Shown here: positions 1,331 through 26,400 of the stretch, one piece after another
Position numbering within the stretch: position 1 is the stretch's first letter
Layout: each line of letters opens with the position of its first letter
NCBI GenBank assembly: GCA_964035545.1
Contig: OZ037769.1
Coordinates: 7,793,929 to 7,857,928, forward strand
Direction of reading: 5' to 3'
DNA: 64,000 nucleotides
Origin: Bugula neritina
Lineage: Eukaryota > Animalia > Bryozoa
Position numbers and translations under genes: made by a program
The notes under the pieces: model-generated
The model's database searches: none
The model's input: only the letters and a program-made list of their open reading frames with translations
Told to the model about the DNA's origin: nothing

Positions 1331-1631
1331 CTGGTGAAGTGGTGGTTGAATCATTAGGGGTTGGTGAGGTTATGTTGCCAACAGTAATTTTCACTGTTTC
1401 TTCCACTTTTAATAACTCATTTACTTAAAAACAAATAAATGAAAGATTGAAGGTTATTTGATCATATAAATGCAGCCCCTGTATACAGCTTTCATCATTC
1501 AACCATTTTATCTATTGTCGGTTTGTCATAGGTGATACTTGATTTGAAATAACCAAGCTTAACATAACCATACACTTGTAGGAAGTTGAAAAAAAATGAA
1601 AATAAAAAATGTATAGTTAAGTGTACAACAG

Positions 1632-2347
1632 CTGCAAAACCTGTACAAAACTAGTGCAATGTGAAATTGTGTGATTACATTCTGCAACACTGCTTGAAAA
1701 TTTATAGAAGTAAAACACAGTTTTTTGAAGATGCATCATCTACTTCATGATATCTGTTGCAAATCTAATTGTGGCCGCTTTCGTGACAGCTGTTGTTAGT
1801 GGCAGTGGTAGTTTTCCTGCCTTCAGCATGAAGGTTACTGATCCAAAGCCTGTTCCGTGAACATAAGCCGCCTGTTATGAGATAATGCACTCAAGTATCA
1901 TCTTTCAATGTAATGTTTTGTTAAATAAATTCTGAATGCCCTATTTATAAATCATGATTATAACACAACAAAGGGCTTTCCCCTGTAATAATGACATTTA
2001 ATGTGCAAGTGAATTATTTGACCTGGTTGCCTATTATTGGAAAAAATATTTTGTTGTAGGAAAACTTTGAAAGGTGCCCTAATCTGCTAGAAACACCTAT
2101 TTGTGCTGACAAATCTTTAACTGTACTCAAAAATACTCACAAGTGCTTAAATGTGCTCATTTGGGCTCAAACGTGTTTAAATGTGCTCAAAACTGCTGAA
2201 AAGTGCCTAAATGTGTTGAAAGGTGCCCTAATCTGCTAGAAACACTTATTTATGCTGACAACTCTGTATCTAACTGTACTCAAGAGTGCCAAAATATAAA
2301 AAGACGGGCTTAACTGTGCTCAAAACTGCTGAAATGTAAATATAAAT
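1632..2347. repeat. Segment duplicated in direct orientation at 4734-5332
   Basis: Near-identical sequence from CTGCAAAACCTGTACAAAACTAGTGCAAT to AATATAAATA in both places. Confidence 0.9.
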
Positions 2348-4733: not shown

Positions 4734-5332
4734 TGCAAAACCTGTACAAAACTAGTGCAATTTGAAATTATGTGATTACATTTTGCAACACTGCTTGAAA
4801 ATTTATAGAAGTAAAACAGTTTTTTAAAGGCGCAGCCACTTCATGATACCATTTGCAAATCTAATTGTGGTCGCTTTCGTGGCAGCTGTTGTTAGTGGCA
4901 GTGGTAGTTTTCCTGCCTTCAGCGTGAAGGTTACTGATCCAAACCCTGTTCCGTGAACATAAGCCACCTGTTATGAGATAATGCACTCAAGTATCATCTT
5001 TCAATGTGATGTTTTGTTAAATAAATTCTGAATGCCCTTTTTATAAATCATGATTATAACACAACAAAGGGCTTTCCCCTGAAATAATGACATTTAATGA
5101 GCAAGTGAATTATTTGACCTGGTTGCCTATTATTGGAAAAAGTATTTTGTTGTAGGAAAACTTTGAAAAGTGCCCTAATCTGCTAGAAACACCTATTTGT
5201 GCTGACAAATCTCCAACTGTACTCAAAAGTGCTTAAATATCCAAAAAAGGGCTTAAATGTGCTACATTCAGGCTCAAACGTGTTCAAATGTGCCCTAATG
5301 TGCTCAAAACTGCTGAAATGTTAATATAAATA
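4734..5332. repeat. Second copy of the 1632-2347 duplication; truncates the transposase
   Basis: Direct sequence identity with 1632-2347; lacks the TIR that follows the first copy. Confidence 0.9.
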
Positions 5333-8300
5333 GATTGAAAATTGAATTGCCAACTAAATTATCAACACATGCTCAATGGTTCTTTCTTATTTATATGAAT
5401 TTGCACCAGTTACGTGTACAAGATTGCAGTCAAAATTTTCGATGTCATATTGCCCTCAGTCGATTTTCTTGGAAGCAGCTCACAGCTAGAATCGATTATT
5501 TAGAGAAATCATTTTAGGGGAATGAATGAACTTCATCCAGAGTTTTGTTTTTTTACTGTCATTTTTTCAATTAGGTCTCTATTGCTGTTGTTTTCATTTA
5601 ATTTGACCAGCGCTGGTTTATTTTATTGTGTAACTTTTGCAAGGTGTGATATTACTACCACACTTTATATTATGTTACAAAGATACTGTAGATGTTGAGA
5701 CACATGTGAATTTGAAATCAGGAGGTTTCAACTTGTTAAAAGTTGTCTTTTCGATAAAAATCCCTGGTGTTTAGTTTTATAGATGTCAATTACATGTCAG
5801 GTGTCAAAAGGTGCTGGTGATATCACATTGCCCTCTGTCCATTCATTTATAATAGTTTTTATATCAATGATTTACACAAGACTTTCGGCTTAGTAGTTTG
5901 ATGGTAAGCATGTTTAATGCCACTTTTCAATGGAGCATGAATAAAAACAGTACTCACTTCTGCCATCAAGTGTAACGGAGAGGATTAGTTTGGGATCCAA
6001 ACTCATCTCCTGTGCTGAGCACCTCTGAGTTTGCTGTTTCAAAAAGGTACTGTCTTTCTATGAAGATTGGCATGTCTTATCCCGCCAGCAATTTAGCAGG
6101 ATCGATTTTATCTAGAGCTCTGTCATCAGGTCTTTTCTTTGTTGTTACAAACTCATCTAAAATTTATTTGGTGGTTACACCTGGTTTGTTAATAACCCTG
6201 AAAGCAGACAGGTAGCTAGGCAACAGAAAATAAATATTTAATTGCAGAGTTTCACAATTCATTCTATAAATTTGACAAAATGATTAGTGTTCAGTCTAAA
6301 GGATATTGGTTGCTTTACATGAAATCAAATTTTTTGTTATTGGCAAGATTTGTAAGTGGTATTGATGAATCTAATTTGAAATTATCAATGTACCCTACTC
6401 TACCACTAGAGAGAACATGCAGTGCACAAATAAAAGTGGAAGGAAGCAAAAAATATAACCAAATAGAAAAGGATGAATAACACTCACCCTACCTGTTTCC
6501 TTTGCCAGCCCGTTCAATAGCTTTCAGAAAGTTTTTATTGCAGAGAAATGGCTTTAGTTCTCGCTGTGTTTCTGTATCTGAAATATTTCTGTTGTTGCAC
6601 TACAATTTTCGAATTTGCTAGTTATACAATAGGAAAGGTAATATTTTACAACCCATTTATTCCACCTTTATTTATCCAAATTCGTTGAATGTATCTTCCA
6701 TTATCATCAACCAAGTTGTCAAGCAAGCCATGCTTACAGCTTGAAAATTCTATTGGTCAAAAGTGTGCTCGTTAGCAATTTTGTTGATATTGGATACCCA
6801 CTTACTTTCTCTGTGATCAGATGTTCAGTTGTGTCAACAACCCAATACACATCGTTGCAGATGCTCTTTATCTATTTTGCCAATATTCTGTGCTTACTTT
6901 TCAATGACAAAGCAGCCAGTTTTTTCTTCAACCCTTAAACATGGTACATGAAATAGTAAATATCACTACTTAGATGTTTGTGTCACAAAATATTGCACGG
7001 CACAGTGAAGAAAATTGACTAACAATATAGGTAACAAACAGCTTGCTTTTACAAATGTGCCAAGTATCAAATAAATGGTGAACATTCGGCCATTTGGTTC
7101 TCCCGTTGGCTGGAATTTGTAAATGTCTATCTTTAGTTAAACTTTTTACTGGTATTTCTAATTTCTCCAGCCGGTTTGATTATTCATATCCTCTTTGAAA
7201 GTGCTTCTATATTGGGAAGGTATTGTATATTAACCTTTTTTTATTCTTGTATTTGTATACATCCCTTTTAATAAAAAGCGCTCAACTGGTTTTCCTAGCA
7301 TTTACGCCGTCACAGGAATACAGGCATTCATTAAAGCTACGTTATTTATAGATTAACTGACCGCATTTTATTTAAACCCCGTTTTTAATTTTTATTCTAG
7401 AAATTGTTTAATCCCATTGCAAAGATTCTACCATTGATTAAAGTTTTGTCTCCTGATGCATGTCAGCCTGATTTTCTATGTTCAACTTCCTGTTACCTTA
7501 AGGGACAATAGCATTACCTTCCACATGATTGTTAGTTCTGGAGTCACTTCTAGTGGAATACATGCAAAAAAGCTAAAGAAAGTGGCCCATTCAACTGATT
7601 TCTTTCTATATATGGAGTGAACACTAAGAGCAGGCTTGTAGGCTACTAATTGCTGTGTTGAATTTAAAAGAACCGGCATACAGAATTTTTGTCTGACCAA
7701 TGCCAAAGGCTAATATATCACTGGATTTTCTTATGCGTTTTTCATAACGTCTACTGCGCCTGTAACCCTGACTGAGGCCAACATTCTGTATGCGACGCCA
7801 CATGCTTTGGCAAAAATGAAAGTCGCTCCCTGATGTTCTGGCTTAGCTCTGTTGAACAGTTTCTTCAAACGTTCTTTTAGATGGTTTGCTTGGATGTCTT
7901 TCTCTGCTTCAGCTGATGATGTGATGAAATTATTTTTTAGTCCATGAATCATACATTCTGAAACCTAAAGGGGGGTATGATTTAGAAGATAATAATTAAG
8001 TCTACCATATATACACACTGCAAGAATAAGTAATATTGAAATAGTATATGGCAGTATTACCTAGCGCTCTAAAACACACGTTTCAATTAATTTTCAACTA
8101 AAAAAGTAACCTCGTACAGTAATTAATAAAACAATGGAGAGCAAACTACACACATTGGCTTTGGTGGTCTCTAACTCATTTGATGTGTCTAATGATATAT
8201 CTGTAGGTCCTTTTCCTGCTGAAAATTCAAATACCACGCAAGAGGTTTGGAGACAAGTAAATTCGCCGTAGTATTCGCTGCTTCTTGCGCAGTCGTTTTC

Positions 8301-8478
8301 ATGGAAACTCAGTTTGCTTCTTGACTTTTTAATTCACCGTTCAGCAATGCCTTCCTATACTTGTGTGCTTTGTTTCAAAAGCTTTGTTTTCGTTAGCCGA
8401 GTTATTTTTTGAACTTTCAAACTTTTTTTGACGGGTCAAGTGTTCTTGCAAACTTTTTCTCGTCTTCCAAGAGTTTAT

Positions 8479-8870
8479 TGTGATAGTTTTGTGGGTTATG
8501 AATGAAACTAGTGCTTTACATGCTTGTTACGAGAAACAAGGCGAGAAATAAGGTAGAAGATAAGGTAGCTTTATTGTAGTCCGAATGATCCAATAGTCTG
8601 TATCCAGCGAGCTCCAGTAGTAGACTTAATCTACACTGAAACTCGCTGGCTTTTATATACACACAGGACAAAGACATTCCTTTGTTTGCCAAGATCGGAG
8701 GCCCGAAATGCCGAATATCGGCACTTTGGGAATCCGAAATGCCGAATTTGGCATCTCGGCACTTCGGTAGTCCGATATGCCGAGAATCAGCATATCGGTG
8801 TTTCGGAGGACCGAAGTGCCGATCTCGGCAACAAAGGACACACACACACACACAACATAAATTTACCACA
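8479..8870 (-). repeat. 3' LTR of the 8479-11076 element
   Basis: TGTGATAG...TTACCACA; minus-strand TATATAAAAG (about 8650-8659) and AATAAA (about 8570-8575). Confidence 0.9.
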
Positions 8871-9166
8871 CACACCCCCCATCGGAAAGCATGCTTTCCG
8901 ATAAAGAGGCGTACACAAACATCAATCACACAAACAAAACATGACACGACAATAAAACACACAGTTGACAAGTAATACACAAAAAAAACAATATACGGCC
9001 GCCATGCAGTGATAACAAAAAAAATAAAGAGAATTGTGCACACATGAGAAAGAGAAAAAAAACAGAGTAACGGATAAGTAAATAACACTACATGAAAGAA
9101 TGCACACATACATAAAAAAGCAAAGAAAATAAGATCGAGAGAAAAGAAACACATATACAAACAGTC

Positions 9167-10622
9167 TCATCGGCGGTCTCCAGATCGGCCCCGCTCCAGG
9201 CGGCTTACACATCTCCTGAGTTGCCCTAACTCCTCCTCACACCTGCGGAGCCGCCGGCGTAGGTGTTGTACTTCTTCCTCCAACTGGGCCGATGTCTGGT
9301 GTCTGGGGCGGTCGGTGGTACTATGGCTAGTACGTCTCCTCTGCTTCTCGCCCGCCGCCGGGGGCCCAGGTCCGACGAATCGGTCCTGGCACCTGATCCG
9401 ACCCGTGCCAGCACGACCCGAAGTGGTTGGGTGGCTGCCGGTTGGGGTGTCGCGGCGGGCTCCCCTTCTTCACGAACAGGCCTACACGCGGGGAATCCCA
9501 GGGCGAGAGCAGCCCGTTTATGGGGATCCGCCACGTGTCGCAATACCAGGTCCCGAAACTCGGGAAAGGAGGCCTGGTCTACAGCGAACTGTAACCCGTG
9601 TGGCAGTGAGCTATGCGCTGATGCCTCAGCACATAGTCTCTCTGGTAAGAGAATTCGCCACACGGGCAAAACACGTTGATGTAGTGCTGTTGGGCGTGTA
9701 CACGCAACCGCCGTGCAGAGGAGAACTTCCTCTGGCACTGGTGGCAGATGCGGTTGCCCGGCTCACCGCAAGCTTCACCAATCCTAAGATTGGTGGGTCC
9801 AGTCACCCAATACTGGCGGGCGACCAGGGCCCGGGGCAGGGCCAGTATTGGGGAGTCATCTTCTTCGGCTGTGAGGTGGTCGCCGTGTAGGATGCCCTGC
9901 TCCTCCCCGGCCGTGAGCTGAAGCTCGACCGGTTTGGGGTCAGGGCCACTAACGATGGCGGAACACACCTCTGTGGAGGAGGTGGCGTCCTGCTGGCTGT
10001 GAGAAGCCGAAGCAGGAGCCGGTGGGAGAGGGGAGTCGGACTGACTGGCCTCCTCGGTGTCCATACGCTCCTCTAGAATAGATAGTAGAGGCTGTGATAA
10101 GCCGGTCTCACTATCGCCGAAATTCGGCGTATGTGTGTATGGAGCCAAATTAAAGACCGGGGGCCGAGGGGTATCACAGAAATTGACTGAGCCCACATCA
10201 TGATCCAATAAAGTATCAATGGCAGAGTCATCTCCGAGATCCATCTCGGCCTCCGGTCCTAAGAAATCAGACCCAAGTAAGTCTAATAAAGACCAGTCTA
10301 CACTAGTTTGACTAGACTCCGTAACTGGAGGATCTAATCTAAATGAAATACCTGATTGTGTGTCTGGTAAAGTAATTCCCATAGCTCCTGATAGCGTCTG
10401 GAGAACAGTATTTAAATCAAACTTGGGGGTATCAGGATCAGAATTCAATTTAAGCTGTAACTGACGTGCTAGCTGTGTGAAATCAGAACTAGAAATGGCC
10501 GAACCTCGTGCTTCAGAAGTATTACCTGCCGAAGCCCGAGACGCGTGGCCCGTGGGAATTTCCCCGGGATTTCGAAAAGACAACTCGCGTGATCGAGTGT
10601 CTTCCGAAATTCGGTCGGCCAT
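9167..10622 (-). pseudogene. LTR-element cargo ORF: acidic N-terminus, zinc-binding module and C-terminal coiled coil, broken by two frameshifts (about 9590 and 9300)
   Basis: ATG at 10622. CHQC..LRVHAQQH..FCPCG..VLRHQRIAHC, then next frame FAVDQASFPEFRDLV..GFPACR, then last frame QLEEEVQHLRRRLRRCEEELGQLRRCVSRL..* with stop at 9167. Confidence 0.75.
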
Positions 10623-10706
10623 TTCTTCTTGGTGGAATTCTCCGGGGTGATGGAGGGAATTTCCAACCAAGATTGGGTGGTCGTCAGTACGGGGGGGGGG
10701 GTTTAT

Positions 10707-11076
10707 TGTGATAGTTTTGTGGGTTATGAATGAAACTAGTGCTTTACATGCTTGTTATGAGAAACAAGGCGAGAAATAATGTAGAAGATAAGGTAGCTTT
10801 ATTGTAGTCCGAATGATCCAATAGTCTGTATCCAGCGAGCTCCAGTAGTAGACTGAATCTACACTGAAACTCGCTGGCTTTTATATACACACAGGACAAA
10901 GACATTCCTTTGTTTGCCAAGATCGGAGGCCCGAAATGCCGAATATCGGCACTTTGGGAATCCGAAATGCCGAATTTGGCATCTCGGCACTTCGGTAGTC
11001 CGATATGCCGAGAATCGGAGGACCGAAGTGCCGATCTCGGCAACAAAGGACACACACACAACATAAATTTACCACA
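10707..11076 (-). repeat. 5' LTR of the 8479-11076 element
   Basis: Near-identical to 8479-8870. Confidence 0.9.
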
Positions 11077-12976
11077 TTATTTTCAATGGCGTGTGTGCAG
11101 TATGCCTTTATAGCGTCTATAATATAAGTTGATCCTACGTTTAAGCGCAAGTATCACCTTTTAAAGTAATGTTTTGGATAAATTATGACTAATATATCTA
11201 TAAATCATAATAACACAACGAGCTATCCTCTGCAATAATGACATTTAATGTGCATGTTTATAAACTGAGTTGTTTAACATGGTTGCCTATACACTCAAAA
11301 AATCTTATCGATGCAAACCATAGCATTACGTAGGATATTATTATACATCCTGCTGTTTTCAAAACTTGTTGTTTTATGAACACTTTTCCTCCTTTGCATT
11401 TTTTCCCATATAAGTAGCTTTTTTCTGCTTCTTTTATATTCCTTATATGTGTAAAATCATGCATAACTTTTTCTAACAAAAACATTGTTGAAAAAAACAG
11501 ATGTAACTGTTTTAGTTGATAAAACCATGTCAACATATATCAATTTATCATATTGATCATGATAAATCTAAAGTTATAGCATCAAGTAGTATATCCTGCT
11601 GTTTTCAAAACTTGTTTTATGAACACTTTTCCTCTTTTGCATTTTTTCCCATATAAGTAGCTTTTTTCTGCTTCTTTTATATTCCTTATATGTGTAAAAT
11701 CATGCATAAATGTTTCTAACAAAAACATTGTTAAAAAAAACAGATGTAACTGTTTTAGTTGATAAAACATGTCAACATATATCAATTTATCATATTGATC
11801 ATAATAAATCTAAAGTTATAGCATCAAGTAGTATATTGTATATCCTGCTGTTTTCAAAACTTTTTTTTTATGAACACTTTTTCTCATTTCTGTTTTTTTC
11901 CTTATTTATATGAAATCACGAATTGTTCTAACAAAAGAAAAGTATTAGGAAAGCCAGTAGTTACTTCAGCTGATAAAGCATGCTTACATATATCACCTGG
12001 CAATATTACAACTGAATTGCAAATTAAGAGGTTATTGGCCTTTCTAGGTATATATACAAAAAGAAGAGTATGGTAAAACTTGATTAAACCATGTTGTTAC
12101 TAATAGTTTGTTATGTGCAAGACAATATCATTAGATAAAAGATATAAATGTGAGCTAAGGTATACAAGGTTGGTATACAAGGTTACACAATAAAAGTATT
12201 AAATTTCATCTAGGAACTACAATATGATTTTAAAGCCAATACAACTTCAACTCCAGTTATTAGTAGCTGCTCACTCGTTATAAATTTTTAAATAACCAAT
12301 TTTAATGGAGAATGGTGAACAAATGCAAAAAAATTTCTTACCAGTGCACGATGGACTGAATGATTCAGTCATTTCTTCTGAAATAAACTTCCAGCAGTTT
12401 TCTTTAACCGACTTGACTTCTCTATATGATTTAGAAGCCATGTTGTAAAAGGGCGTTCTATTTTCAACCAGCTCAAAGAGTAACTCATCACGAGAGTAGT
12501 CATGATTTGGAGTGTGGTTTGGCGTTGTGATTGCAAGTTGAATTGGATAATAAGAATGAATAAATTCAAAAAAGTAAGGTCCTGCACGTGCAACCTGCGT
12601 GGCAAAAAGGCTTTAGAGACAACATAACACAAAGTGCATCAACATAAATTGTTCATCAAAATATGATCAAGACCAACCTGTATATCAGGTGCATGGTCAC
12701 ACAGGCAAAAGATTACAAAACTATAAAACTCCTAGTCTATTTTTTACATGGAGAAGAACTGGCCAAAATGATGCTCTAATTTTGAGATTAGACAGAGTTT
12801 ATTTACATATATGTAAGAATTATTGCTTTTAAAAGTTATATAATCATATTACCATATGTATTAATAAACATTCAGAATATAATATTTTTAATGTGCTTTA
12901 TAACCAACTACAAACAAAAGAGAACATGGATGCCTACACACAAAGAAAACATTATCAAAGCATAGCAAGATGTTAT

Positions 12977-13313
12977 TGTTGTAATTTGCACAATTACTAT
13001 GCGTGGATTTTGCTTGCGTATTCAGTATGCGTCCTAACTAGTAATTACTAGGGTAGTAGCCATATAGTCTTTATTATCCACAATAAACACAGTACAAAAC
13101 ATTACACTAATTCACAGTAATACAATAGCCATCTAATACGTGTGTACACTTAGAGTCCTCGCTCACAACAACGTGATAACTACTAGCTAACTGTCACTGG
13201 GCCGAAAGCTCATCTTCCGGTTCTTCTTATTGGATAATATAATGGGGCCTTTAGTATTGCTCCAAGGAAGAGGAGATAATTCTTATTATTATAATACGTG
13301 ACCCATTACACCA
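12977..13313. mobile_element. Solo LTR with TTAT TSD
   Basis: TGTTGTAAT...ATTACACCA termini, TTAT on both sides; diverged relative at 15472-15805. Confidence 0.8.
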
Positions 13314-14087
13314 TTATAAATCTTCTTGTGTTCAAAACTTTTTGTTTCATGAAAACTTTTCCTCTTTTGCATTTTTTCCCATATAAATAGCTTTTTTCTG
13401 CTTCTTTTATATTATTTATTTTTGTGAAATCGCGCATAGTTCTAACATAATAAAAGTATTAGGAAAGCTAGTAGTTACTTCAGCTGATAAAGCATGCTTA
13501 CATATATCACTCGATTATATTACACCTGAATTGCAAATTAAGAGGATATTGGCCTCTCTAGGTGTATATACAAAAAGAAGGGTATGGTAAAATTTGATTA
13601 AACCATGTTGTTACTAATAGTTTGTTATGTGCATGACACTATCATCAGATAAAAGATATAAACGTGAGCTAAGGTACACACTTGGTATACAAGGCTGCCC
13701 AATAAAAATGATGGAATGAAATTGAAATGTTTCAAACAAAATAAAAAGGATATGTAATTACAATAGAAAAGGTTGAACGATGGCAGCTAGGAAATTAAAC
13801 CTTCCAGTGCCATTGTTTAATAGACGCTTTCTAGCATGCCTGCATGTTGTTGCAAGTTCATTGCAACCTTTTTATGATGAGCAATGTGGCTTGCAGAGGT
13901 ATCTAACCTATGTTTCTGTTATTGGTTACCAGTGCTTAATAGATTATGGCTTTTGTGCAGCATTCGTCATTAAGTGGGCAATTGGCCTTCACTTGCAGCT
14001 ACATGGTTCAAATGTGGTGTTTCTTTCACAAGAGTAGTTCTGGGATGACCAGGGCGCTAGCAGACGCCTTGTTTTTCTCAACTTTAT

Positions 14088-14450
14088 TCACCAACACCCG
14101 CCGTGCTGGCTAGCTGGGTTGAGATGGTCAGCCTTCTTCATCTTTTTCCTCAACTCCGCTGCCTCCTGGACAGCTGACCTGGCTGCTGGGAAGCCAATAA
14201 TCAGTCTCCTGCATTTCCCCAGGTCTTTTACACTAAGCAGTATCAGGTGACCGAATTCTGCGTACGATATCTTCTCCACTCCCTAGATCCGCGAACATAA
14301 CACTTCATGATTCTCTGGTGTCAAAGGATGTAGTCTCAGTTGTAGCTGTATTCCCCGCAGAAACAGAATGTGGTGATACAGTGCTATGAAACGCGCACCT
14401 TTAGGAATTGTTTTTGAGACATGTAGCACTTTGCACCCTCGCTCACCATT
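14088..14450 (-). pseudogene. Decayed third copy of the retroelement zinc-module ORF
   Basis: Minus-strand translation KCYMSQKQFLKVRVS*HCITTFCFCGEYSYN*DYIL*HQRIMKC, then after a frameshift VEKISYAEFGHLILLSVKD..LIIGFPAAR; aligns by eye to the 9167-10622 ORF. Confidence 0.75.
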
Positions 14451-15471
14451 ACTTGATAGATTGCGGCTTTTGTGCTGCATTGGCTAGTAAATCGGCAATT
14501 GCCCTTAGTTTTGCCGCTACAGAGTTTAGATGTGTTGCTAGGTTGGTCTTTTGCCAGAGTTTTCGTATTATAATGTCAAATAATTGATAGGATAGTTGGC
14601 ATGCAGCTGTGCGAGACTTTCAGCGTTTTATGTTTTGATTCTTATAATTCAGATAATTCTTAGATGGTATATAAAATATATTTCATGAATGCACTACTCA
14701 CCAGCTGTATTTCATGCTGTTGTGAGAAGCAATTTGTGGTTGCTAATGCTCTCCAGCATGTGATTTGCAATTTATTTTATCTTGCTGTTGTCTAAATTAT
14801 GTATGAAGTTTTATGGGCCGCCACATTTTTCTTTTAGGCAATCCAGCATATCGCATGTCAAACAGAATAACCAGAGGTTGTGTTGCCCAAAACTAATCAT
14901 GAGCAGGATGTGAATGTTCATTGAAATCGGCTTCAGACAGTTGAAGTTGGGATGTATAATCTTGAAGCAATTGGTTGGACACCCAATGTTTACATTATGC
15001 TGTACTTGAAACAATATTTTCAAAGACTGAAACTGTTATTTTGGAGTTATTTTTAGAGTAATAACTTTTAACAAGTTTTTTCGGTTTGTTTCAAGTGAGC
15101 ATCTTTCAGCATATTGATTTTTTTTGTGAATTTTTCTAATGGAAAATGTAATACATGTTTTTAAAACTGTTTCAAAATATTGTATTCAAATGTACATAGA
15201 TTTTCAAAATTTTCATAAATGGCTCTTGGATATAACAAGAAATGAGAGCTAACTTGAGTACTAATAAATACCTACATATAATATCTTATTAAAATAAAAT
15301 AGTCATGAGTTGTGTCCAATAATTGAGATGCGTCAAATGACCAAAAACACAATAATTGTACATATATGTCATGCGCATGAGGATATCAAGCTTTCTTTGG
15401 CTCTGTTAAACTGCAAGTTTAGGCTGCACCATTGTTACTTTGCATATCTTGTAAAATCAGTTCATGTATAT

Positions 15472-15805
15472 TGTTGTAATTTGCACAATTACTATGCGTG
15501 GATTCAGTGCTTGTTTCTAACTAGTAATTCCTAGGGTAGTAGCCGTATAATAGTTTTTATTATTCACTATAAACACAGTACAAAACATTACACTAATTCA
15601 CAATACCGCAACAGCCATTTAATACGTGTGTTCACTCTGAGTCCTCGCTCACAACAACATTATAACTGCTAGCTAACGCAGGAACTGTCACTTGATCTGA
15701 AGTTTATCTTCCGGCCCTTCTCATTGGATAATATAATGTGGCCTTTAGTATTCCCCCAAGGGAGAGGATATGATTCCATATTATCATACTACGTAACCCA
15801 TTACA
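15472..15805. mobile_element. Solo LTR, same family as 12977-13313
   Basis: TGTTGTAATTTGCACAATTACTATGCGTGG...CCATTACA; flanks ATAT and ATAC (imperfect TSD). Confidence 0.7.
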
Positions 15806-16029
15806 ATACGGCATTGTCTGCAAAAACAGTACAACTATTAATCCTACATAATTTTTTTTTTCTTAAACTATAATTGTACATACTTGTTCTATGCAGTAAT
15901 ATGGTAAATTTTTTACATATGCATTAGTAGCTCTCTATAATACAGATGCTCACCTAGCATTATTATGTTCACAATATAGCCACCAATAGTATAATAAAGA
16001 ACTGGAAACAATTTAGATTGGGCTAGTTA

Positions 16030-18300
16030 TAGTGTACTCTTATAGCCAGACGTAATCTGCCAAGGAACTCTGCTATATCATATTCCTGATTCCTGTAGCG
16101 CTGGCATAACAATTCCAATTGATGGTTTAGTCTGATGGTCTTTCGTCATACTCTGCGTCTTGCAGGTATCCCCTCTTGGCTTTTTCTAATTAATACCCTG
16201 TCATTCAAATCTTCTTTCTTTAAGCTTTCTATTGGTTTCCACACACTTGGGTGCCTGTGCCCTATGATATGTTTTATTCTACAAATACAAAAATAAAATA
16301 TTACATGCTTTATACAACTGCAGCTTTGTTGAGGTCGTTGTTGTTTAGTAATATAAGTATTGTGATAAAATGATGTTTCTTATAGTTTTATAATAATCAA
16401 TGAAAAACCATCTGCAGAACAAACATGGAGTTTTTAAACTGTACTACAAAATGTAAATTTTTATTCAACGACATTGAAAAATTATATTCATTTTTCTTAC
16501 CTGTTATTCCAACCTTCACAAATGTTGTTGGTTCTGGTGGGAACATGGGTGGTTACACCACTCTAAAATTAATGATGGCTTGTCCAGTGACATAAACTCT
16601 GTCGAAATAATATACCAGCTCTTCAAGCCCTGAAGGTATAAACAATAATTCAATTTAAGATTAAATATTGTAATAATTTTATGCGTGGAATGTTATAATT
16701 CGCTGCATGTAATTATTGGTGTGGGTTATTAGCTGATGGAACACAGTGACTCTTTGTGAGAGTATTTAGAACACAGTGACTCTTTGTGGGGGGTATTTAT
16801 GAACAAACAAATAAGAAGATTGATACTCACTATCCCTTTATTTCACTCCAAAATACATATATCCAAAAATAGAAAGTTAGGGAGGACAACTCCTTACATC
16901 GTGTGGAAAACTATTAGTAACTATTATTCAAGGTATAAGGTAATTAACTAAGTATATAAGTGTCCTTGCTTGGTAGCTCCGAGTTGTGTCTTCATCTGCT
17001 GTCGGCTGTAGACTGAACTCACTGATGTGAGGGCTTCCTTTTATATGTTGGGAAGTAGTTAACCTAGAAAGTTCCATGCGAATTCAAGGGAGTTCGCTGG
17101 AATCGCAGGGGATTCGCAGGGTCATAACAAAAGGTTCGCTCGAATCGCGCGAACTTCGAGGGGAAATCCCGGTCATCCTTATTATGTAAGTAGTCCTATG
17201 CGTAGCTAGGAACAATAGCTAATCCAGTCAGGGCAATAATATGTAGCTGGGAATAATAGCTAATCCCATCATTACCATCATGACACTTAGCTGTTAATGG
17301 ACTGTGGCTATGCAAATGATATACTTAAGAAAAACACGCATTCCATGGGAATGAAATTAATAATAGTAAGGAAATACACGCAACAATTACAATATACACA
17401 ATTTTACCACAATTTTTACTGGTATACAATAAGCATGCAATTTGTTTATATGCATCGTAGTTCAAATTGTATTCCAAACTTTATAGATAAAATTAGTACT
17501 TTCATGATCATATTCTGTCATATCAAAATACTTACAAGCATTTGACAAGAAATGGTTTCCGCTACCTTGCGGCGTATTCAGTGTCAAATAAGACATTCCT
17601 TGCCTGACATCCGCCAACGGCAAAAAAGCCAACCCATCCAAACTGCCTACAAATTGCCTATACTGCATGTTCTCTTGATAGGCTGCTGCCAGTCCTAACT
17701 GCTGTATTTTTCGCCATGTACTCTAAGAATGAAAGCAAAACATTTAGTATTTTAAAGGTATTTGCCAGTTATGTTGTGTTCTTGCATTTTACCACTATAT
17801 CATTCAATTTAAAATTTTATTTCTTACTACAGCTTTGTGCTGATGAGCAGCAATTTTGCTATGCACTGAGTTCATTGCAGCATGTGGTTTAATAAGCATT
17901 TTAAGTTACTTGTACAAAATAACTATAGGAGCAGCTGCTTTATAACATTTAGGACAAGCATGCATGCTGTAAAAATGTGTTACAAAAAAACCCTACAAAC
18001 AACATTTACTTGCAAACTTTGTTGCTCTTTATCAAAAATACTAATTGCATAGCTTACCTGACACAAGTGATAAAAGCAACCTCTTATGGTTGACAACGGC
18101 ATCACTGTTTTTAGGGCTTGATGAACCGCAGTTTCAAAGTCGCAGTGTATATTCGTCGGCTGAGGTGCTCCGTGCCTGTTTCTGGTGCAGGCCTCAGCCA
18201 CCATATGCAGCATCTCTGTGTATGCCTGTTGCGTTTTCCTTTGTAACATACATACCTGTCACCCACCCATTATCTAGGGGCACTCTTATTATGTACAACT
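16030..18300 (-). pseudogene. Intron-containing MULE (Mutator) transposase pseudogene
   Basis: Exon-like blocks: YVMLQRKTQQAY...IHCDFETAVHQALKTVMPLSTIRGCFYHLCQ (about 18057-18300), STWRKIQQLGL...LDGLAFLP (about 17565-17723), GLEELVYYFDRVYV (about 16500-16631). GT/AG ends present; stops in later exons. Confidence 0.8.
16669..17391 (-). mobile_element. Solo LTR (723 bp) with ATAT TSD, in a MULE intron
   Basis: TGTAAT...ATTACA termini; ATAT at 16665-16668 and 17392-17395; minus-strand TATAAAAG near 17040 and AATAAA near 16840. Confidence 0.8.
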
Positions 18301-18410
18301 AAAACAACCAGGTTTTTTCAATAATAAAAGAATAACTTTGAAACTTAAAAAAATAAGATGCCTTTTTTGCAGATCACATAAAAATCAATAAGTCTAAGTT
18401 GTACATATAT

Positions 18411-18716
18411 TGTTATGATTTTCAGAATTAGGGTCGATATGCAATCCAGAGAGTCTAATTACTTGCTAGAGAACTTCACCAGGATAAGTCGAGTGAACGA
18501 GTATATATTTTAAGTGCAAGAACACATTACGAAAACTATACAAATGCATTTAATAATTCCACACATCTAGATTATTCAACACTCTAACTTCGACTAACCA
18601 ACAGCGGAAAACTACTACTGCTACTAACTACTAAAGTCGCTAACCGGCTGTCATTGTTCCGGGTCATTTACGCGACCCTGCGTATCGTGCTGCTGGTAGC
18701 TCCACGAGCCACCACA
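18411..18716 (-). repeat. 3' LTR of the Gypsy element
   Basis: TG..CA termini next to the PPT; ATAT flank at 18407-18410. Confidence 0.75.
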
Positions 18717-19010
18717 CCGCCCCCACCAGCAGAAAGCCCTCTTTCTGATATAGAAAAAAATATTTCATTATTAACCACGTACATCAGTAGACCAAAAGAA
18801 AAGACATAACATATATAAAGATATACAATAACAGACAGAGTCATTATAACAGCAGGTCACATACAATTGGCCAGCTATAGAGAGGGAATACCGGCTAGTT
18901 GTAGTATTGGACAAGGAGTCGAGCTGTCGAGCAGCCAAGCATTTACATGATAGTCTTGGGTCCCCCAAGAGGATGAGGCTTGTGGGTCATTCCGGGCAAC
19001 AGAACCAGAG

Positions 19011-20131
19011 TCAGTGTTTGGCAAGCCGATGTTTGGCCTGGCAGGTACGTAACTTCCTCTTAATCCGGCCAACCGAACCTTTCAACTGAAAGAGTCCCGT
19101 CGTGGTATTAAGCAGATCCGGTGCTAACTGGGTAAACTCAGCTTGCAGTCGGAGGAGACGTTCTTCCACCGTGGCCAGGCGAGCGGGATCTGGGGACGGT
19201 GTCCGTCTTCGACGAAGAGGGGGACTTGGAGACCGGGTCCGTCTTTTTGTTGGGGTAGGGAGACTTCTCCTTCTTCGGGATAGGAAAACTCTTCGTGGGT
19301 GTACACAATCTGAGGGCGGTCAGGCACCAATGGAGATTGCTGCCTGGCGTAGTCTAGTACGCGCTGGAAACCCGAGGTCAGGACGGCCAACAACATCGCC
19401 TTCTTCACTAGGGGTCGTATTAGAGTTAAGAATTCTGGATAGAGTTTGGCATCTACCACATAATTCTCTCCGGGGAAACAGCCCGTCGCCCGATGTCTGG
19501 TGACGGGGTAGGGGTAGACATCATTATATCCACAGGGACAGAATGTGAGTAATAGGTGGGCGTTGACATGCAGCTTCAAGGAGCGGTCAGGGGCGCACTC
19601 TTCGTCACAAATCTGGCACCGCGTCCTTCCTTTGGATCCCCAGGCTGTTTCTATCTGCTCCTTTGTTTCTGGCGACGCCCACCGCCAACGGCTCGGGCCG
19701 GTCACCATTGGTATACTCCTCATGATGCGGAGCGGGAAGTGCTCTATCCCGTACCCTGGTTGTAACGGGTCGAGTGTAACCTGAAAGAGTTTCAACAGCG
19801 TTAGTATAATACACTGCAGTGTTGTCAGCTTAACCAGCCTGGCAACTTCTCGTTCAGTTACACTCGTAGAGATTTATGGTAGTGAATAGTCAGATAGAAC
19901 ACGTATTGCAATGAGATTATAAAAATCTCTAAGTCAAACTGAGTTCTTACTACGGTATTTCACTAACCTATCTCCAGCTCGATTGACCCAGTGAGTCGGA
20001 GCTGAGCGATGCAATCTAGTTTCCATATCAAGATATAGTTAACTCACCCCACGATCCGTTGTCGTAAGACATACTGAATTTGTGAAATGGTTTGGACTAC
20101 TGATTAGTAACACGTCTACTCTTGACTGCAT
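19011..20131 (-). pseudogene. Extra 3' ORF of the Gypsy (env position): zinc module plus coiled coil; putative exons 20131-20048 and 19780-19011, one frameshift
   Basis: VTGP...CQIC..LKLHVNAH..FCPCG..VTRHRATGC..VVDAKLYPEF..GF; shifted C-terminus LATVEERLLRLQAEFTQLAPDLLNTTTGLFQLKGSVGRIKRKL..*. Confidence 0.7.
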
Positions 20132-22275
20132 CAGCGTATGAAAAGATCGAGCAACGTGGTTGGGGTGCGTGGTTAAGACTTTGTGTACCCGGCGGATGAA
20201 TTTTGTTTCTACTTCCGCCGATACAAAAGTTGATATTTCCGTTGTGTTGACAACTCCCACATTTGCTCGATACTTTTCCCGTACGATTTTCCCCCAGACT
20301 TTCGTACGCGCCGCTTTTAATGCAGTCACAAACGAAGTCCTTCAAGTATGCGGGGGGTTGCCTCGTATGTTGTCCCCGCTCCAGGGGAGGTGACGCACTC
20401 GTCGGTGTGTTAGTAGGGGCCTCCGGTGGCGTCTCTACTTCACCGTTAGTGGTCACTTCTTCTTGTTCTCCGGATGGAGCCCCTCCCTCCGTGGGGGTTT
20501 GCACTTCCGGAACCGGCTCGGTTTCTGGAAGTGATGGAATCAGACTTGGCGGTGGCAGACGCGCTTCTGTTGGTAAAAGCGGTCGCTCATCTCTCACCAA
20601 GTCTTCCTCCCGCGGTACGACCACTTCATATTCGGGTCCCTGCCGCCGTTGCCCACGCGTTTTGTCTGCCTCCTGGGCTCCAACAACGGGCTTCTCCCAC
20701 TGCGTCGGGGCTAGCCCAGTACGACTTCAAGCGAGACTCATTCTGGATAGACACCTGTCCTGAGCGCTCAATCTTGTACGTATGGTTGGGCATCGCCTCG
20801 ACGATCACGTAGGGTCCCACGAACTTAGGCTGTAGCTTAGCCGCCTGTCCGCGACGCCTACGGTAATTGACGATCCACACCTTATCTCCCGTCTGGTAGA
20901 GGGGTGGTTCCTCGGAATCTTCGTGTCGCACCTTTCACTGCTGTTCGCGCAGTATATCGTGTGCGACCTTCATCCGTTCCACTAGTTCACTGGCATACTC
21001 GTGAATCGAGTTGTCTAGCTCTGGAACGTGGTAGGTGAGATGGTCAGGGACCCGGGTCTCTCCTGAGCATCAAGAGGTTTGGGGTCTCACCAGTACTGGT
21101 GTGTGGGGTGCTACGGTATGCACGCATGACTTGCGGCAATACCGTGTCCCATTCTTCTTGACTGCGTCCGAGGAGAAGACCCAGAGCGCATCACCTAGCA
21201 TTCGGTTGTTGCGCTCTACCACCCCGTTACCTTGGGGGTGGTAAGGGGTGGTCCTGCTCTGATTCACCACCCAGAGGCGGCAAAGGTCGCTCATCAGTTG
21301 GGACTGAAACTGCGCGCCTTGATCAGAGTGTATCTGTTCGGGAAGCCCGAAATAACAGAGTACATGTTGGTCTAGCGCCCTGGCCACAGTTGGGGCTGAC
21401 GCATCTGGGATAGCCAGAGCGTCTGCCCACCTAGTAAAGTGGTCGGTCAGTACTAAGATCCAACTATTGCCTCTGGGGGTCAGGGGCATGGGTCCGACTA
21501 GGTCAACAGCTACCACTTGCCACGGCCTGCCAGCATATAGCCTCCGCCGTCCCGCTTCACCAGGGAGACGGCCATGCTTGCTGGCCTGGCAGATTTCGCA
21601 CCGCTTTACTCTGAGCCGGACATTCCGCCCCATTTTGGGCCAATACCACCGGAGTTGCAATTTGGAGATCACTCTCTTGACTCCTGCGTGGGCCTGTTTG
21701 TGAGTGTCCCAAATTAACTCGCGGCGTATGGCGCTGGGGCAGACCACCCTCTTCCTCTCCGGGTGTCTGTCGTTGGCAGCTAGAGAAATGGTCAATAGAC
21801 CATCCTGCCCGATCCTCAGCGAGTCCCAACGCTGGCAGAGTAGCCGGAACTCGGCGCATCCCTGCCGTATGCGTTCTTCGCTGGGTCGTCGCCCGTCCTT
21901 TTTGGCCCGATATATGTCTGCCACTACCCCAGGCAACTCTTCCTGGAGCTTCTTCAGCTCCTGGACATTATCGGCCAGTACAGGATTGGCGCGCAGATTT
22001 TGTACAACCTCCGGGGACTCGTCAACCTCCTGCCTGAGTTGACCCTGGTCCCAGTCAAACGGTGCTCCGTGGTGAGCCAATGTCTCCATCGCGGGGGACC
22101 TCCGCCCCTCCTCTCGATGTTGAGACACTGTTTGCAACCTCCATCAGGTCGGCGGCTCAAACCATCCGCATTGCTGTGTCTCTTGCCCGGTCGATGTTCG
22201 ATCCGGTACGAGAACTCAGCTAGGATTTCGAGCCACCGGGCGACCTGACTGGAGGGCTCTGCTCTCTTGCACAAT
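20097..22275 (-). pseudogene. pol: Gypsy pol fragment (RNase H C-terminus and integrase), frameshifted
   Basis: ARWLEILAEFSYRIEHRPGKRHSNADGLSR; HKQAHAG..YWPKM..CEIC; DLVGP, HSDQGAQF, YHPQGNGVVER; KLQPKFVGPY; RQPPAYLKDFV. Confidence 0.93.
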
Positions 22276-23409
22276 CTTTTTAGCAGCATCACGGTAGTTT
22301 CAAACATGCCTGAATACAATTAAAGCATATTCTTCTTGCAATGCTTTCTGACTTCCTTTGAAAACAGCTTCAAACAAACTGATAAGTCTCACATCTTAAA
22401 AGCATTACTTCACAGCGTATTCACAGGAAATAACATAAAATTTTGACTGTAATTGCACCCATCACCTGAAAAGACCAAAGCAGTGTTCCCTTCTGTTTCT
22501 GCACTACACTGCCACGCCTTTTTCAATAACTGGATGACTATTCTCATCCTTCAAAATATATAATGTGTATCGAGAGAAGCATGCACAACCTCTTTTATAA
22601 ACTTTCTGAATAATTTTTATAGCATAGATCGAAGAAAAAATTAATGTATGGCTTGCTAACTGTAGAGTTATCGAAATAACATTGAAGAGCTGTTTTTATG
22701 TGACAGGCATTGATAACCGCTTGACACCTATTCAAACTGGAAACAGTTTTGTACATAAATACAAAAGCAGGTTTGTGTTCATTCGTTGAACTATAATTAT
22801 AGAGTATAGTTTTGTTGAGTAGGTAGTGGTGATTGAATAATTGACCAAATTAAACCAAGATCTTGTACATTGCGTCTATTTTGAAATATGTGCTGGGGCT
22901 CAATAAATATGTGAGGTATGTTTCACCATTGTTAGTTGAGACAATTAATTTTTAATAATGACAATAATATAACAATGGTCATAGTTTTTTATGAGATCGA
23001 AAAAAGTCATATGATGTGGTAGTGTTTTCCTTGAGGGTTATGTTAAAACTAGCTGTCATCACTACCATTTTTACCACAGCCTAACGATTTTCATCATGAA
23101 CAATTCTTCAAGCAAAGGGTATGATGTTTTGCTAATCACGTGGGTAGCTAAAGGATATGCATTTACCTAGTTATGGGAATCTTAATCTAGAGAAATTTTC
23201 ATTTTTTGTGACTTCTCATTTTAGAAGCGATCATACGAAAATATCACGAAAATAATTTTTTACAAAAATAATATAGTTAATGTTTCCCTAGTTATAATGA
23301 ATGCCATGACATATGCAATGTCACTACATATAATGGCAAATGCTCGGTTAGTAATGAAAGTTTAGTCTTGTCAAGGCTCAACTCTTGGCCTTTCAGATCC
23401 TCTGTACTT

Positions 23410-26400
23410 ATGACTGGCGATATGTAAACTTGACACAGTTGTGTGGCCATTGTTGAGCTTTATAATATTATTTATTATCATGACACCTTGGGTATCAAAA
23501 AGCATTTAAAACGTTTTGTTGCAGTTTCTACGAAGATGACGAATTTGCACGGTACATTAAAGATGTACGTTCCAGTTATTCATCTTTTGCTAATGGAAGT
23601 GGTAAAGGTAAGCCCACTTTCTCTTGAATAACACCGAGGTTGTTGCCTGCAATAGTTTCTGCTATGAAATTTATTGTTTCTGCTCTAGAGCCAGTGAAAG
23701 CTGCTAACAGTAGCATCAGCACTGGGAATGTAGAGAATACTCGGACACCCAAAACAGTTCAGACGGCTCCGCCAACCTCATCAGTAAATGATCTTCTGAA
23801 CCAAAATCAGCGAGAGATGCCAGATGGTTTGTAGTTATCCAATCTCTTCTGTGATCATTTTCTATCAATGCATAGTCAAGAATCAATCACTGTTCACAGT
23901 TAGCTCAACAAACTCTTATTTCACTCTAATTTGTATTATTCTTCAAATTTACATTCTTTAGAAGAAATAGAGAGAGGACTTGATGTGTTGCTGCTTTGTT
24001 TATTCTTTATTGAATTTTATTTTTTAACTTTGTTGATGTATGAAAATCCAGTCATGGTTTATCTTTACAATAGTTCAGTCATCTCAATCCTTTGTATTGG
24101 CTGAAGAAGAACCTGATTCGTTGCATTCGCTACTCACCCATCAACACACTCTGTCTGCAAGTATTAATGGTAATCTTATTTAATAAGTCTTTAGCCCGCT
24201 TTAACAAAAACCCTTTCCATCAGGGGTTTCTCACAGGAATAGCGACTATAAACTTGTATGAGTTTTTCTTTAGTTTGTGTGAGTTTATTTCTATATACCA
24301 GTGTTCAATGAGCTGTCTTATCCAGTTTATTTGATTAGTTGGCAAAATGCCAAGTTTGCTTGTTTAGAAAACTTCACAAAATTGCTCAGAGGCATTGAAA
24401 TTGTGTGTGGAACTAGAAGTTTGTTTTGGAGTTTATTGCGAATTATATATATCAACTCTACATAGTATTAGCATACATTATTAGCCATTAAAACTCAACA
24501 ATTCAACACTTAATCATATTTTAGAGGCTCCTGGGCTCAGGTTTTTTGTTGAAAAATCTACCCAGCAATACGTGATAGATAAAATGGCATGAGAAATTAG
24601 AATTGTTATGTTATATATGATCGACTGTGGTCTTCAAAATGTCCATCACTGCACCCACATTCAAAGCCATGTACTAAATAGTTGCCAACCTTTAAGTTTT
24701 TATGCCGTATTTAGAACCCATTTCTTAATGAATGGGATGTATAAGTATATGTATTTATTATGTATGCATATATGCATAATATTGTTAACAAATTACGTAC
24801 ATATATGTATGTAATTTGTTAACAATTTTTATCAATCTAGCAATTGTGTTTTTAGCCAGCCCAAGTGCGTCTGGGATGTCATTAATGTCGACAGCCAGCA
24901 AACACCATCCTGGTGAAAGTGGAATTTTCTATCAAATGAAATCAAAATCTGAAAGACTGTCTTATCTTTTCAAGTCATTTCGCAAAGGTACAGAGAGCAG
25001 CACTTTATAATAATTATGTTAATTATACATCTACTATATTATATAATTTATTATACAATGAAATTATTATAAAATATATATTTTCGTACAAATTTAATGC
25101 CATTATATAATGCATTTATTATACAATATATTTGTTGTCTCATACACTTATCATATAATGTGTTAATTATACAGTTATGTAATTATTATATAATACAATA
25201 ATTTTGTTATATATAGGATATATGTTTTGTACAATATACTTATATAATATATATAATATTATATATTCACTTAGGTACTACTAAGCTTCGTGGAAACAGG
25301 TCCCAGGTGTTTACTGATGACAATGCCAGTTTAGCTTATGAAGAAATTGTAAATGTTCAATCCGATGACAGCGAAGCAGGAAATCTGGCAGCTTTACCAG
25401 ATCCTCTGCAACTACATGGTAATTCCTGTCTGCTTGGTGAATAGGTTTCGGTTATTCTGTCTAACAAATGTTCTAGAGTTGAAGTGATGAAGTTAAAATC
25501 TTTTGTCCTATTATATTATTTATATTACAATATGTCTTTAAACTTATAATGTAAGGTGGAATATAGTGTAGGCAGATTTTTTTCACTGATGGTTAGCTGT
25601 GTACAAGTGTATAAACCAACTCTGATTAAAGCCAAAATTATGTACTGCAAACTATATTTACGGTTGCTATAATATTAAACACCAGGATGTATCACATATG
25701 CTTTTTGTACGCCATTCAGATCAGGAAGGGATGCAGCGAATATCCACTGGCCATGCTTTTCAAGATGAGGGACAGCCTGACAACCTCCCAAGCTCATCAT
25801 TCAGCATGACTTGGTACAAAGGTTTAAGCATCGCTATAGGTACTGGCTGTTTTCTGGCAGTAGCTAGCTCATCACCTCTCTTTCTAGGCATCAGCTGTGG
25901 TGAGTGTGAAGACTATATAAACATAAGGTTTTTGTTCTGTTTTACTCATCACACTTTTTTGACAACTTTGGCAGCTTTAAATTGTTATTACATCTTGAAA
26001 TAACATACCAATTTTTAAAAACTTGAAGCAGTTTCTGCTACTGAGAATTCTTTCCACACCATTAGAAATGGCGATGTGTATTGCTCATCTCTCTCACCTT
26101 TCACCGCTATGTCCTGATTGGGTGGCAGTATTTTGCTTAACATCCAGTTCAAACACACTTTCCTATCTCACTCAGTCACCTAAATCACTTTAGTTGAGGT
26201 CTAGCCAATGGTGGTCAGCTTTGATTGTGTCACTCCACTGCTGTTTTAGCTGCCTGCGCCCTTTGCTGTCCTCCACTCTCATATTGTACACTCTCCTAAT
26301 CTCGACAAGCATGGCCATACCATTCTAGCCTCTTTGTTCAAGACATCTCCGATTGGCATAATATCTGCTTCTGTTATCTCTTCATTTCTTTGGTGTTACC

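Follow-up and report, generated by a model that had tools for sequence, protein, structure and literature searches.

Complex retroviruses encode small nuclear products of spliced RNA, such as Tat/Tax, Rev/Rex and foamy virus Tas, which act on the long terminal repeat (LTR) or on the RNA. In LTR retrotransposons, extra open reading frames (ORFs) often follow pol, and for most of them there is no explanation; those whose role is understood are few and encode envelopes, enzymes or the export factor CERV. Analysis of a stretch of DNA from the bryozoan Bugula neritina (contig OZ037769.1, positions 7,793,929 to 7,857,928; the whole 64,000 nucleotides are referred to as the window) revealed three copies (A, B and C) of another gene of this kind, two of them in Gypsy-type elements (A and B). 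The gene is predicted to encode a zinc-finger protein that would act as a nuclear, likely dimeric, DNA- or chromatin-binding regulator of its own element and would be the 3' gene of an animal, likely bryozoan, Gypsy clade. On sequence comparison and structural modelling, this reading has about an even chance of being correct.

Among the closest comparable systems is CERV of the Caenorhabditis elegans Gypsy element Cer1. According to PMC10309623, CERV is encoded by a 3' ORF at the env position and expressed from a spliced RNA, the last exon being in frame with the polyprotein and preceded by a TTTCAG acceptor. The protein is nuclear and has a Cys-rich motif, a leucine zipper, a ring-forming M domain, a domain resembling G proteins and possibly a C4 loop; it is described there as an export factor for unspliced RNA with no homology outside nematodes. 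The family reported here likewise is a 3' ORF at the env position that is not env and combines a Cys-rich part with a zipper or coil, but its two fingers are of the C2H2 and C-x-C types and some of its homologues look like host genes, a distinction drawn from the description of CERV and not from direct sequence comparison. Its intact relatives (220-250 residues) consist of the zinc core (C2H2 plus C2HC), a disordered linker and a coil, and the H, M and G domains and C4 loop of CERV were not found in them.

Extra ORFs that lie after pol and before the 3' LTR are also known from Gypsy elements of plants and fungi (Grande gene23, RIRE2, Retand, PvRetro13 and Boty). According to PMC7264820, Grande gene23 is nuclear, and such ORFs are antisense, have their own promoter and are proposed regulators without an assigned function. 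They are conserved and occupy the same slot, but have no similar genes outside elements, whereas the present family is animal, has C2H2 spacing and host-like homologues, and is sense, lying on the strand of the integrase, polypurine tract (PPT) and LTR promoter. The ORF3 of bdelloid rotifer LTR elements is of GDSL esterase, DEDDy exonuclease, coiled-coil or transmembrane type and is expressed from spliced messages (PMC5408684). These too are animal Gypsy elements with a non-env ORF3, including a non-autonomous family that retains it, but the products are enzymes or membrane proteins, and "zinc" was not found in the accessible part of that paper. The available text on bryozoan env elements (PMC13524379) does not mention a zinc finger. 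With the regulators of complex retroviruses only the logic would be shared, by analogy, and BFVD gave no sequence or fold match. Extra 3' ORFs are known in kind, and the sense family with a C2H2 pair and a coil appears to have no earlier description: no account of it was found in the literature, Pfam, PDB and BFVD, while Repbase, Dfam and GyDB lay outside the search and an unnamed Repbase ORF is possible. The gene, which many diverged families retain, may offer a testable case of a "complex" retrotransposon with its own nuclear regulator, with LTR palindromes and HP1 as candidate partners.

Gene copies and their elements in the window

The window is animal DNA with about 35% G+C and contains spliced host genes, including those for an innexin and an adaptor medium subunit. 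A profile built from 131 zinc cores, in which copy B and the first part of copy A are rows and copy C is not, was compared with all six frames. Matches were obtained at exactly three loci, all on the minus strand: copy B at 19696-19361 (E = 2e-39), copy A at 9842-9555 (E = 7e-38) and 9597-9478 (E = 0.003), and copy C at 14434-14291 (E = 2e-11). Independently of the profile, tblastn connected A with B (E = 4e-7) and A with C (E = 2e-8). The original prediction had placed three homologous ORFs here, A and B ending in heptad coiled coils. The homology, the positions and the coils, which also occur in relatives, were recovered, but none of the three copies is an intact ORF. The frame of copy A is disrupted near 9590 and 9355, and that of copy B near 19690 and 19260, its zinc core being uninterrupted; copy C has three stops in the finger block and one frame break. 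The string VTGP, which had been regarded as common to A and B, is a coincidence. The relatives P0001 and P0002 read PEPLRRRWRW where copy B shows VTGP, and the likeness is accidental because the frame that yields it in B is not the one that these closest homologues use.

Copy C is an old relic. It belongs to the family by its finger block, as predicted; its second block (VEKIS...IIGFP) is weak (E = 0.0014 in a search of 14000-14520 only and 0.86 against the whole window), a coiled coil is not evident, and no LTR, PPT or pol was seen around it. Contigs of the sequencing runs show single-copy depth there (bins 116-138). The relic stands between two 92-base direct repeats (13928-14019 and 14445-14537) that are 75% identical.

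Element B shows the gene order, with the gene located after the integrase and before the PPT and 3' LTR. The pol end of B, 5'-truncated near 22274, matched the Pfam families H2C2 (E = 5e-14), rve (E = 9e-16) and SH3 (E = 1e-6), whereas its RNase H piece gave no Pfam hit and was recognised by eye. The integrase is followed by the tail RQPPAYLKDF at 20363, and its frame is closed by a stop at 20097, which lies 316 bases upstream of a predicted splice acceptor with a TACTAAC branch point. TACTAAC occurs 13 times in the window, and just one of these words, at copy B, is followed by pyrimidines and CAG; the acceptor reads TTTCAG. The pattern [FL][SL][DG]xTR, picked after inspection of the sequences, stands at the acceptor position in 11 of 125 core-bearing proteins, all from B's clade, as expected of a conserved acceptor. 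Splice-type joints were absent among the matches listed in DNA-like contigs of sequencing runs. The acceptor signature in B's clade suggests that the protein may be made from a spliced subgenomic RNA; in other lineages the same exon would stay in frame with pol, as in Cer1.

[quoted passage not shown] An env-like or cell-to-cell spread protein in the ORF3 slot is nevertheless highly improbable and was rejected. No signal peptide or transmembrane segment was found at a shared conserved place, a mean hydropathy above 1.6 in a 19-residue stretch was reached by just 3 of 32 proteins, the conserved Cys and His residues have zinc-finger spacing, and the model is soluble and globular. The earlier view of a 3' gene other than env is supported in this respect.

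In element A, the gene lies between two LTRs that differ by three substitutions in 376 bases, a microsatellite change of 6 bases and an indel of 16 bases. Because the two LTRs are nearly identical, the structure is young. No gag, pol or primer-binding site (PBS) was found between them. P0040 aligns with the frame of copy A from ten bases past the 5' LTR, that is, from its first codons, and continues upstream into RARRPPRYLADY, the tail motif that also follows the integrase of B. For this reason element A is best read as an internal-deletion derivative that retained only the 3' gene, although it may instead have arisen by recombination between a solo LTR and another copy. ATAA is present on both sides of the element, and ATAAAC also adjoins the 5' LTR, which makes the target-site duplication ambiguous. 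The copy A gene is clearly repeated: summed contig depth over it in sequencing run X1, possibly the source of the window, was, although according to the tool's warning this is not a copy number, 1,600-8,100, compared with 110-130 on long unique contigs.

The LTR sequences of A and B are unrelated, in agreement with the proposal that the gene is shared by different LTR families. Despite this, the distance from gene stop to PPT and LTR is 297 bases in A and 295 in B, and GAAAG-N4-CTTTC stands just ahead of the PPT in both; the hairpin is significant in A (z = -3.9) and not in B (z = -0.65). Ty3/Gypsy membership follows from the H2C2, rve and SH3 parts of the integrase (B), which RNase H precedes in the 55%-identical P0193, the TG...CA LTR pair and PPT (A), and the PPT and 3' LTR (B). 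PBS, gag, protease and reverse transcriptase are absent from the window, being deleted in A and truncated in B; no PBS was recognised and no tRNA genes were found in the window, and Rfam gave 0 matches over 8400-22400.

The U3 regions of the LTRs of element A (10880-11050 and 8650-8845) contain seven TGCCGA/TCGGCA words, which form nested palindromes on the upstream side of a TATA box, a number reached in 0 of 500 shuffles. Whatever binds there, such an array is unusual for an LTR. The palindromes may be DNA sites for a dimer, or an RNA element. The LTR of B contains none, and the finger-2 helix differs in B's clade; from two elements, this is no more than a hint. Folded as RNA, the U3 of A, which is transcribed in the 3' LTR, gives a branched hairpin of very high stability (-89.5 kcal/mol, z = -8.6). 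Such a structure would suit an RNA factor similar to Rev, Rex or CERV, in which a spliced protein binds structured unspliced RNA, forms multimers by means of the coil and enables nuclear export. The gene position and expression logic match those of Cer1 CERV, including the TTTCAG acceptor of B (PMC10309623, accessible part), and 38 of 73 proteins have basic stretches rich in Arg after the core. However, B's LTR and a neighbouring solo LTR fold without notable structure (z = -1.5 and -1.6, respectively), the RNA structure of A follows trivially from the DNA palindromes, likely host genes, which have no element RNA that would need export, bear this domain too, and the model of P0036 contains no CERV-like M or G domain. 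An RNA factor is rather unlikely.

Conservation and predicted structure of the zinc core

Word searches confirmed 21 of 85 candidates with copy B and 23 of 3,110 with copy A. A profile of 32 relatives then yielded 353 clusters at E <= 0.001 (170 at 1e-10), of which the best 150 were inspected. The 131 cores are those covering at least 75 of 118 profile positions among 204 collected sequences. Comparison of these cores revealed that the ligands C, C, H, H, C, C and H are kept in 121, 125, 125, 125, 130, 130 and 124 of them, respectively, and that 105 have the complete pattern C-x2-C-xN-H-x3-H-x5-C-x-C-x11-13-H-xN-[CH]. The flanking W-x-T...I and V-D...F-P elements are also conserved, and the finger-1 helix is basic, with R or K at three positions in 105, 80+ and 107 of the 131. 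Cores are 64-68% identical inside clades A and B, and those of A share 33% identity with those of B; the corresponding values for the linker are 38-40% and 12%. A heptad tail is significant in 46 of the 73 proteins long enough to test. Searches for DNA of the relatives gave 54 pattern matches in viral contigs and 101 in metagenome contigs, none confirmed; the LTR pattern had 0 matches in the metagenome contigs, and no phage match was found.

Between copy A and other copies, 20 of 35 differences are synonymous (29% expected, p = 5e-4); these are the 40 best-supported of 172 differences minus 5 upstream of indels, and 13 rows came from one contig. By our own arithmetic, dN/dS (the ratio of nonsynonymous to synonymous substitution rates) is roughly 0.3 for them. 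Purifying selection on the gene, which the original prediction had left to such a comparison, is thereby supported at the sequence level.

The unbroken core of B, modelled with 94 sequences, forms a compact single domain with a predicted local distance difference test (pLDDT) score of 95 and a predicted template modelling (pTM) score of 0.87, which indicates that the fingers and their flanks are one unit. Its zinc-finger geometry, together with the kept ligands, supports the predicted zinc module. Residues ~20-72 were best overlaid on the tandem C2H2 DNA-binding pair of Kaiso (Z = 3.9, root mean square deviation [rmsd] 2.9 over 57 residues), followed by SALL4 ZFC4 (Z = 3.6), although unrelated helical rows scored equally. 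No clear structural match was obtained for the parts on either side of the fingers, which does not establish a new fold. The model of whole P0036 shows a confident core (residues 1-115), the disordered linker and a single long helix; whole-protein fold searches returned only generic helices and weak C2H2 rows, and the P0036 homodimer model scored 0.20 against a mark of 0.32. Of the fate of the family under named-family and fold searches, it can be said that no named family emerged from Pfam, PDB or BFVD and that a weak tandem C2H2 overlay did.

Comparison with classical C2H2 proteins (PF00096, PF13894; SALL4 ZFC4, Kaiso, ZBTB and BCL11A) showed that finger 1 of the A clade shares C-x2-C-x3-F-x5-L-x2-H-x3-H and that the two-finger part overlays with an rmsd of 2.5-3 over ~50 residues. 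In contrast to these proteins, the family has two fingers only, the second being C-x-C with a last ligand that is mostly Cys, no TGEKP linker, and a 120-residue fold that adds a W-x-T helix at the N-terminus and a strand and helices at the C-terminus. Nearly all members remain below the Pfam cut-offs (copy A, 17.5 versus 25.2 bits; 1 of 44 members passes zf-C2H2_4).

A second candidate contact lies outside the fingers. Ligands of the HP1 chromoshadow domain (PxVxL, or HAC) are alternating hydrophobic pentamers with a central Val in a disordered region and 3-6 basic residues in the 9-mer (PMC12526061, available part). A pentamer with a central Val occurs in a disordered stretch (low linker pLDDT) in the A and D clades and in distant members: in these two clades LxVxL or PxVxL follows the core at a distance of 13-31 residues, whereas in distant members it precedes the core by 8-57 residues. 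One of the latter is P0193, which has the best motif, with four basic residues. LxVxL or PxVxL with at least two basic residues is present in 22 of 72 non-B proteins compared with 6.3 expected by shuffling. Taken by itself, the strict PxVxL form shows no enrichment (11 of 95 versus 7.3 expected).

Association with Gypsy pol and with host-like genes

Three kinds of relatives connect the module with pol. P0193 contains RNase H, an integrase 55% identical to that of B, SH3, ~370 more residues, the zinc core and the coil, all in one frame. P0032, P0034 and P0040 begin with an RxRxPPxYLxxY tail as found after the integrase of B. P0184 and P0188 are natural ORFs of 1,145-1,208 residues that combine a Gypsy-type protease with the zinc module and lack reverse transcriptase and integrase; they possibly represent a non-autonomous family. 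In a tree of 64 of the 131 cores, P0193, P0184 and P0188 are separated from A and B by the main split (support 93/91). Because pol-linked members thus also occur on the other side of this split, the link between gene and element is probably old.

The chromodomain of chromoviruses and the Sir4-binding peptide of Ty5 steer integration. As a C-terminal extension of Pol, the module might in the same way direct the integrase to chosen DNA or to HP1 chromatin, and it is this that the stop-free stretch of P0193 from integrase tail to core, its HP1-type motif and the in-frame tail motif of P0032, P0034 and P0040 would favour. Against it, the integrase frame of B is closed well before the acceptor, P0184 and P0188 link the module to a protease, and proteins of 1008-2875 residues contained no further fusion, weak evidence according to the tool, the profile search having led to P0193 only later. 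The in-frame position is in itself no proof of fusion, as Cer1 has it too (PMC10309623, accessible part). Since the Cer1 exon is in frame with pol and yet spliced at TTTCAG, P0193 and B can be reconciled. An integrase-targeting tail is quite unlikely; the in-frame Pol forms might represent a path between such a tail and a free accessory gene.

When 30 clusters were looked up, named records, all of them bryozoan gene models, turned up in 4. The named members are XP_067944745 and XP_067940963/4 of Watersipora subatra and KAF6040922 and KAF6040923 of B. neritina. Three named records share an N-terminal region that is absent from element-linked members, which suggests that these models are host genes, although they could be element-derived. 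Two zinc cores per protein were observed in P0046/P0194, P0083 and P0195, three of which match named bryozoan gene models. Host-like and element-linked rows occur on both sides of the main split, and the host-like state needs two changes; a single host-like clade is not rejected by the approximately unbiased test (p-AU = 0.065), yet it appears in 0% of bootstrap trees. Capture and domestication are both compatible with the tree.

The domain could also be imagined as a captured fragment of a host transcription factor, a passenger or a decoy whose copies titrate a host repressor or merely persist. The gene models from two bryozoan genera, the N-terminal region that three of them share and the distribution of host-like rows on both sides of the split are in keeping with capture. 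The strong constraint inside elements excludes a mere passenger, the element-linked clades have diversified deeply, as seen in the A-B core identity, and the tree is compatible with either direction of transfer. A passenger or decoy of this kind is very unlikely. In either direction, the host-like homologues would exemplify the movement of genes between elements and their hosts.

The family is not confined to LTR elements, some named members probably being host genes. The earlier picture of a consistently LTR-associated accessory factor stands insofar as B lies between integrase and PPT-LTR, A lies between LTRs, and the gene is a conserved non-env 3' gene of Gypsy families; "always free-standing LTR accessory ORF" is too narrow because the domain also occurs in host-like genes and in frame with pol.

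A self-regulator binding DNA or chromatin is the reading preferred here. In this mechanism the zinc fingers would recognise a short stretch of sequence, probably one within the LTR of the element itself, and the coiled coil would pair two chains so that palindromic sites could be read. The acidic N-terminus and the LxVxL or PxVxL motif may contact host chromatin proteins such as HP1, and this contact would tune transcription or silencing of the element. Several observations weigh against it. The U3 of element A folds equally well as RNA, and the LTR of B has no palindrome array. The threshold of two basic residues and the looser motif patterns were chosen after the sequences had been seen, and many hits are kin; under the published rule of at least three, 3 of 72 proteins qualify compared with 1.3 expected (51 of 300 shuffles reach this), copy A having two, and in B's clade the HP1-type motif is found in 0 of 23. 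The fold match is weak, with no Z >= 5 among 48,161 chains and no Foldseek E <= 0.001. The finger linker consists of five hydrophobic residues and does not resemble TGEKP, and the last ligand of finger 2, a C-x-C finger, varies; together with the weak fold match, this means that a canonical DNA-binding mode is not assured. C2H2 pairs bind RNA and protein as well as DNA. In B's clade, finger 2 lacks RD and has a different helix, and the three differences listed in B's gene are all non-synonymous. Genomic context covers a handful of relatives, and 4 of the 30 clusters hold host-like gene models.

A more elaborate version would make the protein a Gypsy-encoded chromatin adaptor that sits as a dimer on LTR palindromes and binds HP1, is produced from spliced RNA or as a Pol tail, serves both self-regulation and targeting, and has had its domain exchanged with bryozoan hosts. 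Judged from the sequences, this combination is unlikely as a whole. If true, the adaptor would be the mirror image of the host KRAB-type zinc fingers that police retroelements.

Feature coordinates and other observations in the window

Table 1. Features of the two elements and three gene copies, given as positions in the window.
Feature	Positions	Strand	Remarks
3' LTR, element A	8479..8870	-	then ATAA 8478-8475, candidate 4-base target-site duplication
GAAAG-N4-CTTTC hairpin and G-rich PPT, element A	8871..8910	-	
Copy A, accessory gene	9167..10697	-	acidic disordered N-terminus, zinc core, linker, coiled coil; first ATG 10622
C-terminal heptad coiled coil, copy A	9188..9283	-	
LRVVLARV, copy A	9400..9423	-	conserved linear motif in disordered linker; LxVxL, putative HP1-binding type
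Zinc core, copy A	9478..9842	-	C-x2-C-x12-H-x3-H, 5-residue link, C-x-C-x12-H-x5-C, then strand and helical cap
5' LTR, element A	10707..11076	-	TG...CA; flanked by ATAA at 11080-11077
Copy C, decayed zinc-core relic	14180..14434	-	tblastn and profile; no visible LTR
3' LTR, element B	18411..18716	-	TGTGG start certain; end inferred from ...ATAACA
GAAAG-N4-CTTTC stem and PPT, element B	18717..18756	-	
Copy B, accessory gene	19011..19780	-	zinc core 19696-19361; coiled coil 19178-19011
Predicted splice acceptor, copy B	19781..19806	-	TACTAAC branch point 19806-19800, pyrimidines, AG 19782-19781
Gypsy pol end, element B, broken	20097..22274	-	RNase H end, integrase H2C2, rve core, SH3, RQPPAYLKDF tail

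Further repeats were observed near the gene copies. A solo LTR-like insert at 16690-17262 on the minus strand (TG...ACA) has GCGAA/TTCGC repeats before a TATA box and disrupts a spliced gene of host-like or DNA-transposon-like character with exon-like stretches at 16100-18200. Two related solo LTR-like repeats at 12970-13310 and 15464-15805 (minus strand) are 81% identical and read TGTAATGGG...ATTACAACA. A MADF/Myb-SANT-like fragment at 12271-12612 (minus strand; Pfam E = 0.004, sub-threshold) is possibly of Harbinger-type origin.

Host genes are represented by a stop-free innexin coding stretch of 271 codons at 34261-35076 (minus strand; Pfam E = 2e-47), in whose vicinity plus-strand exon-like ORFs at 29061-33377 appear TEX2-like by eye and had no Pfam hit. 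Exons of an adaptor-complex medium subunit at 55568-57818 (minus strand; Pfam E = 2e-13) adjoin a 22-base tandem array at 57799-58692. Dispersed short repeats in both orientations, resembling miniature inverted-repeat transposable elements or short interspersed nuclear elements, were located at 24206-24264, 27455-27664, 30237-30431, 37254-37449 and 40271-40473.

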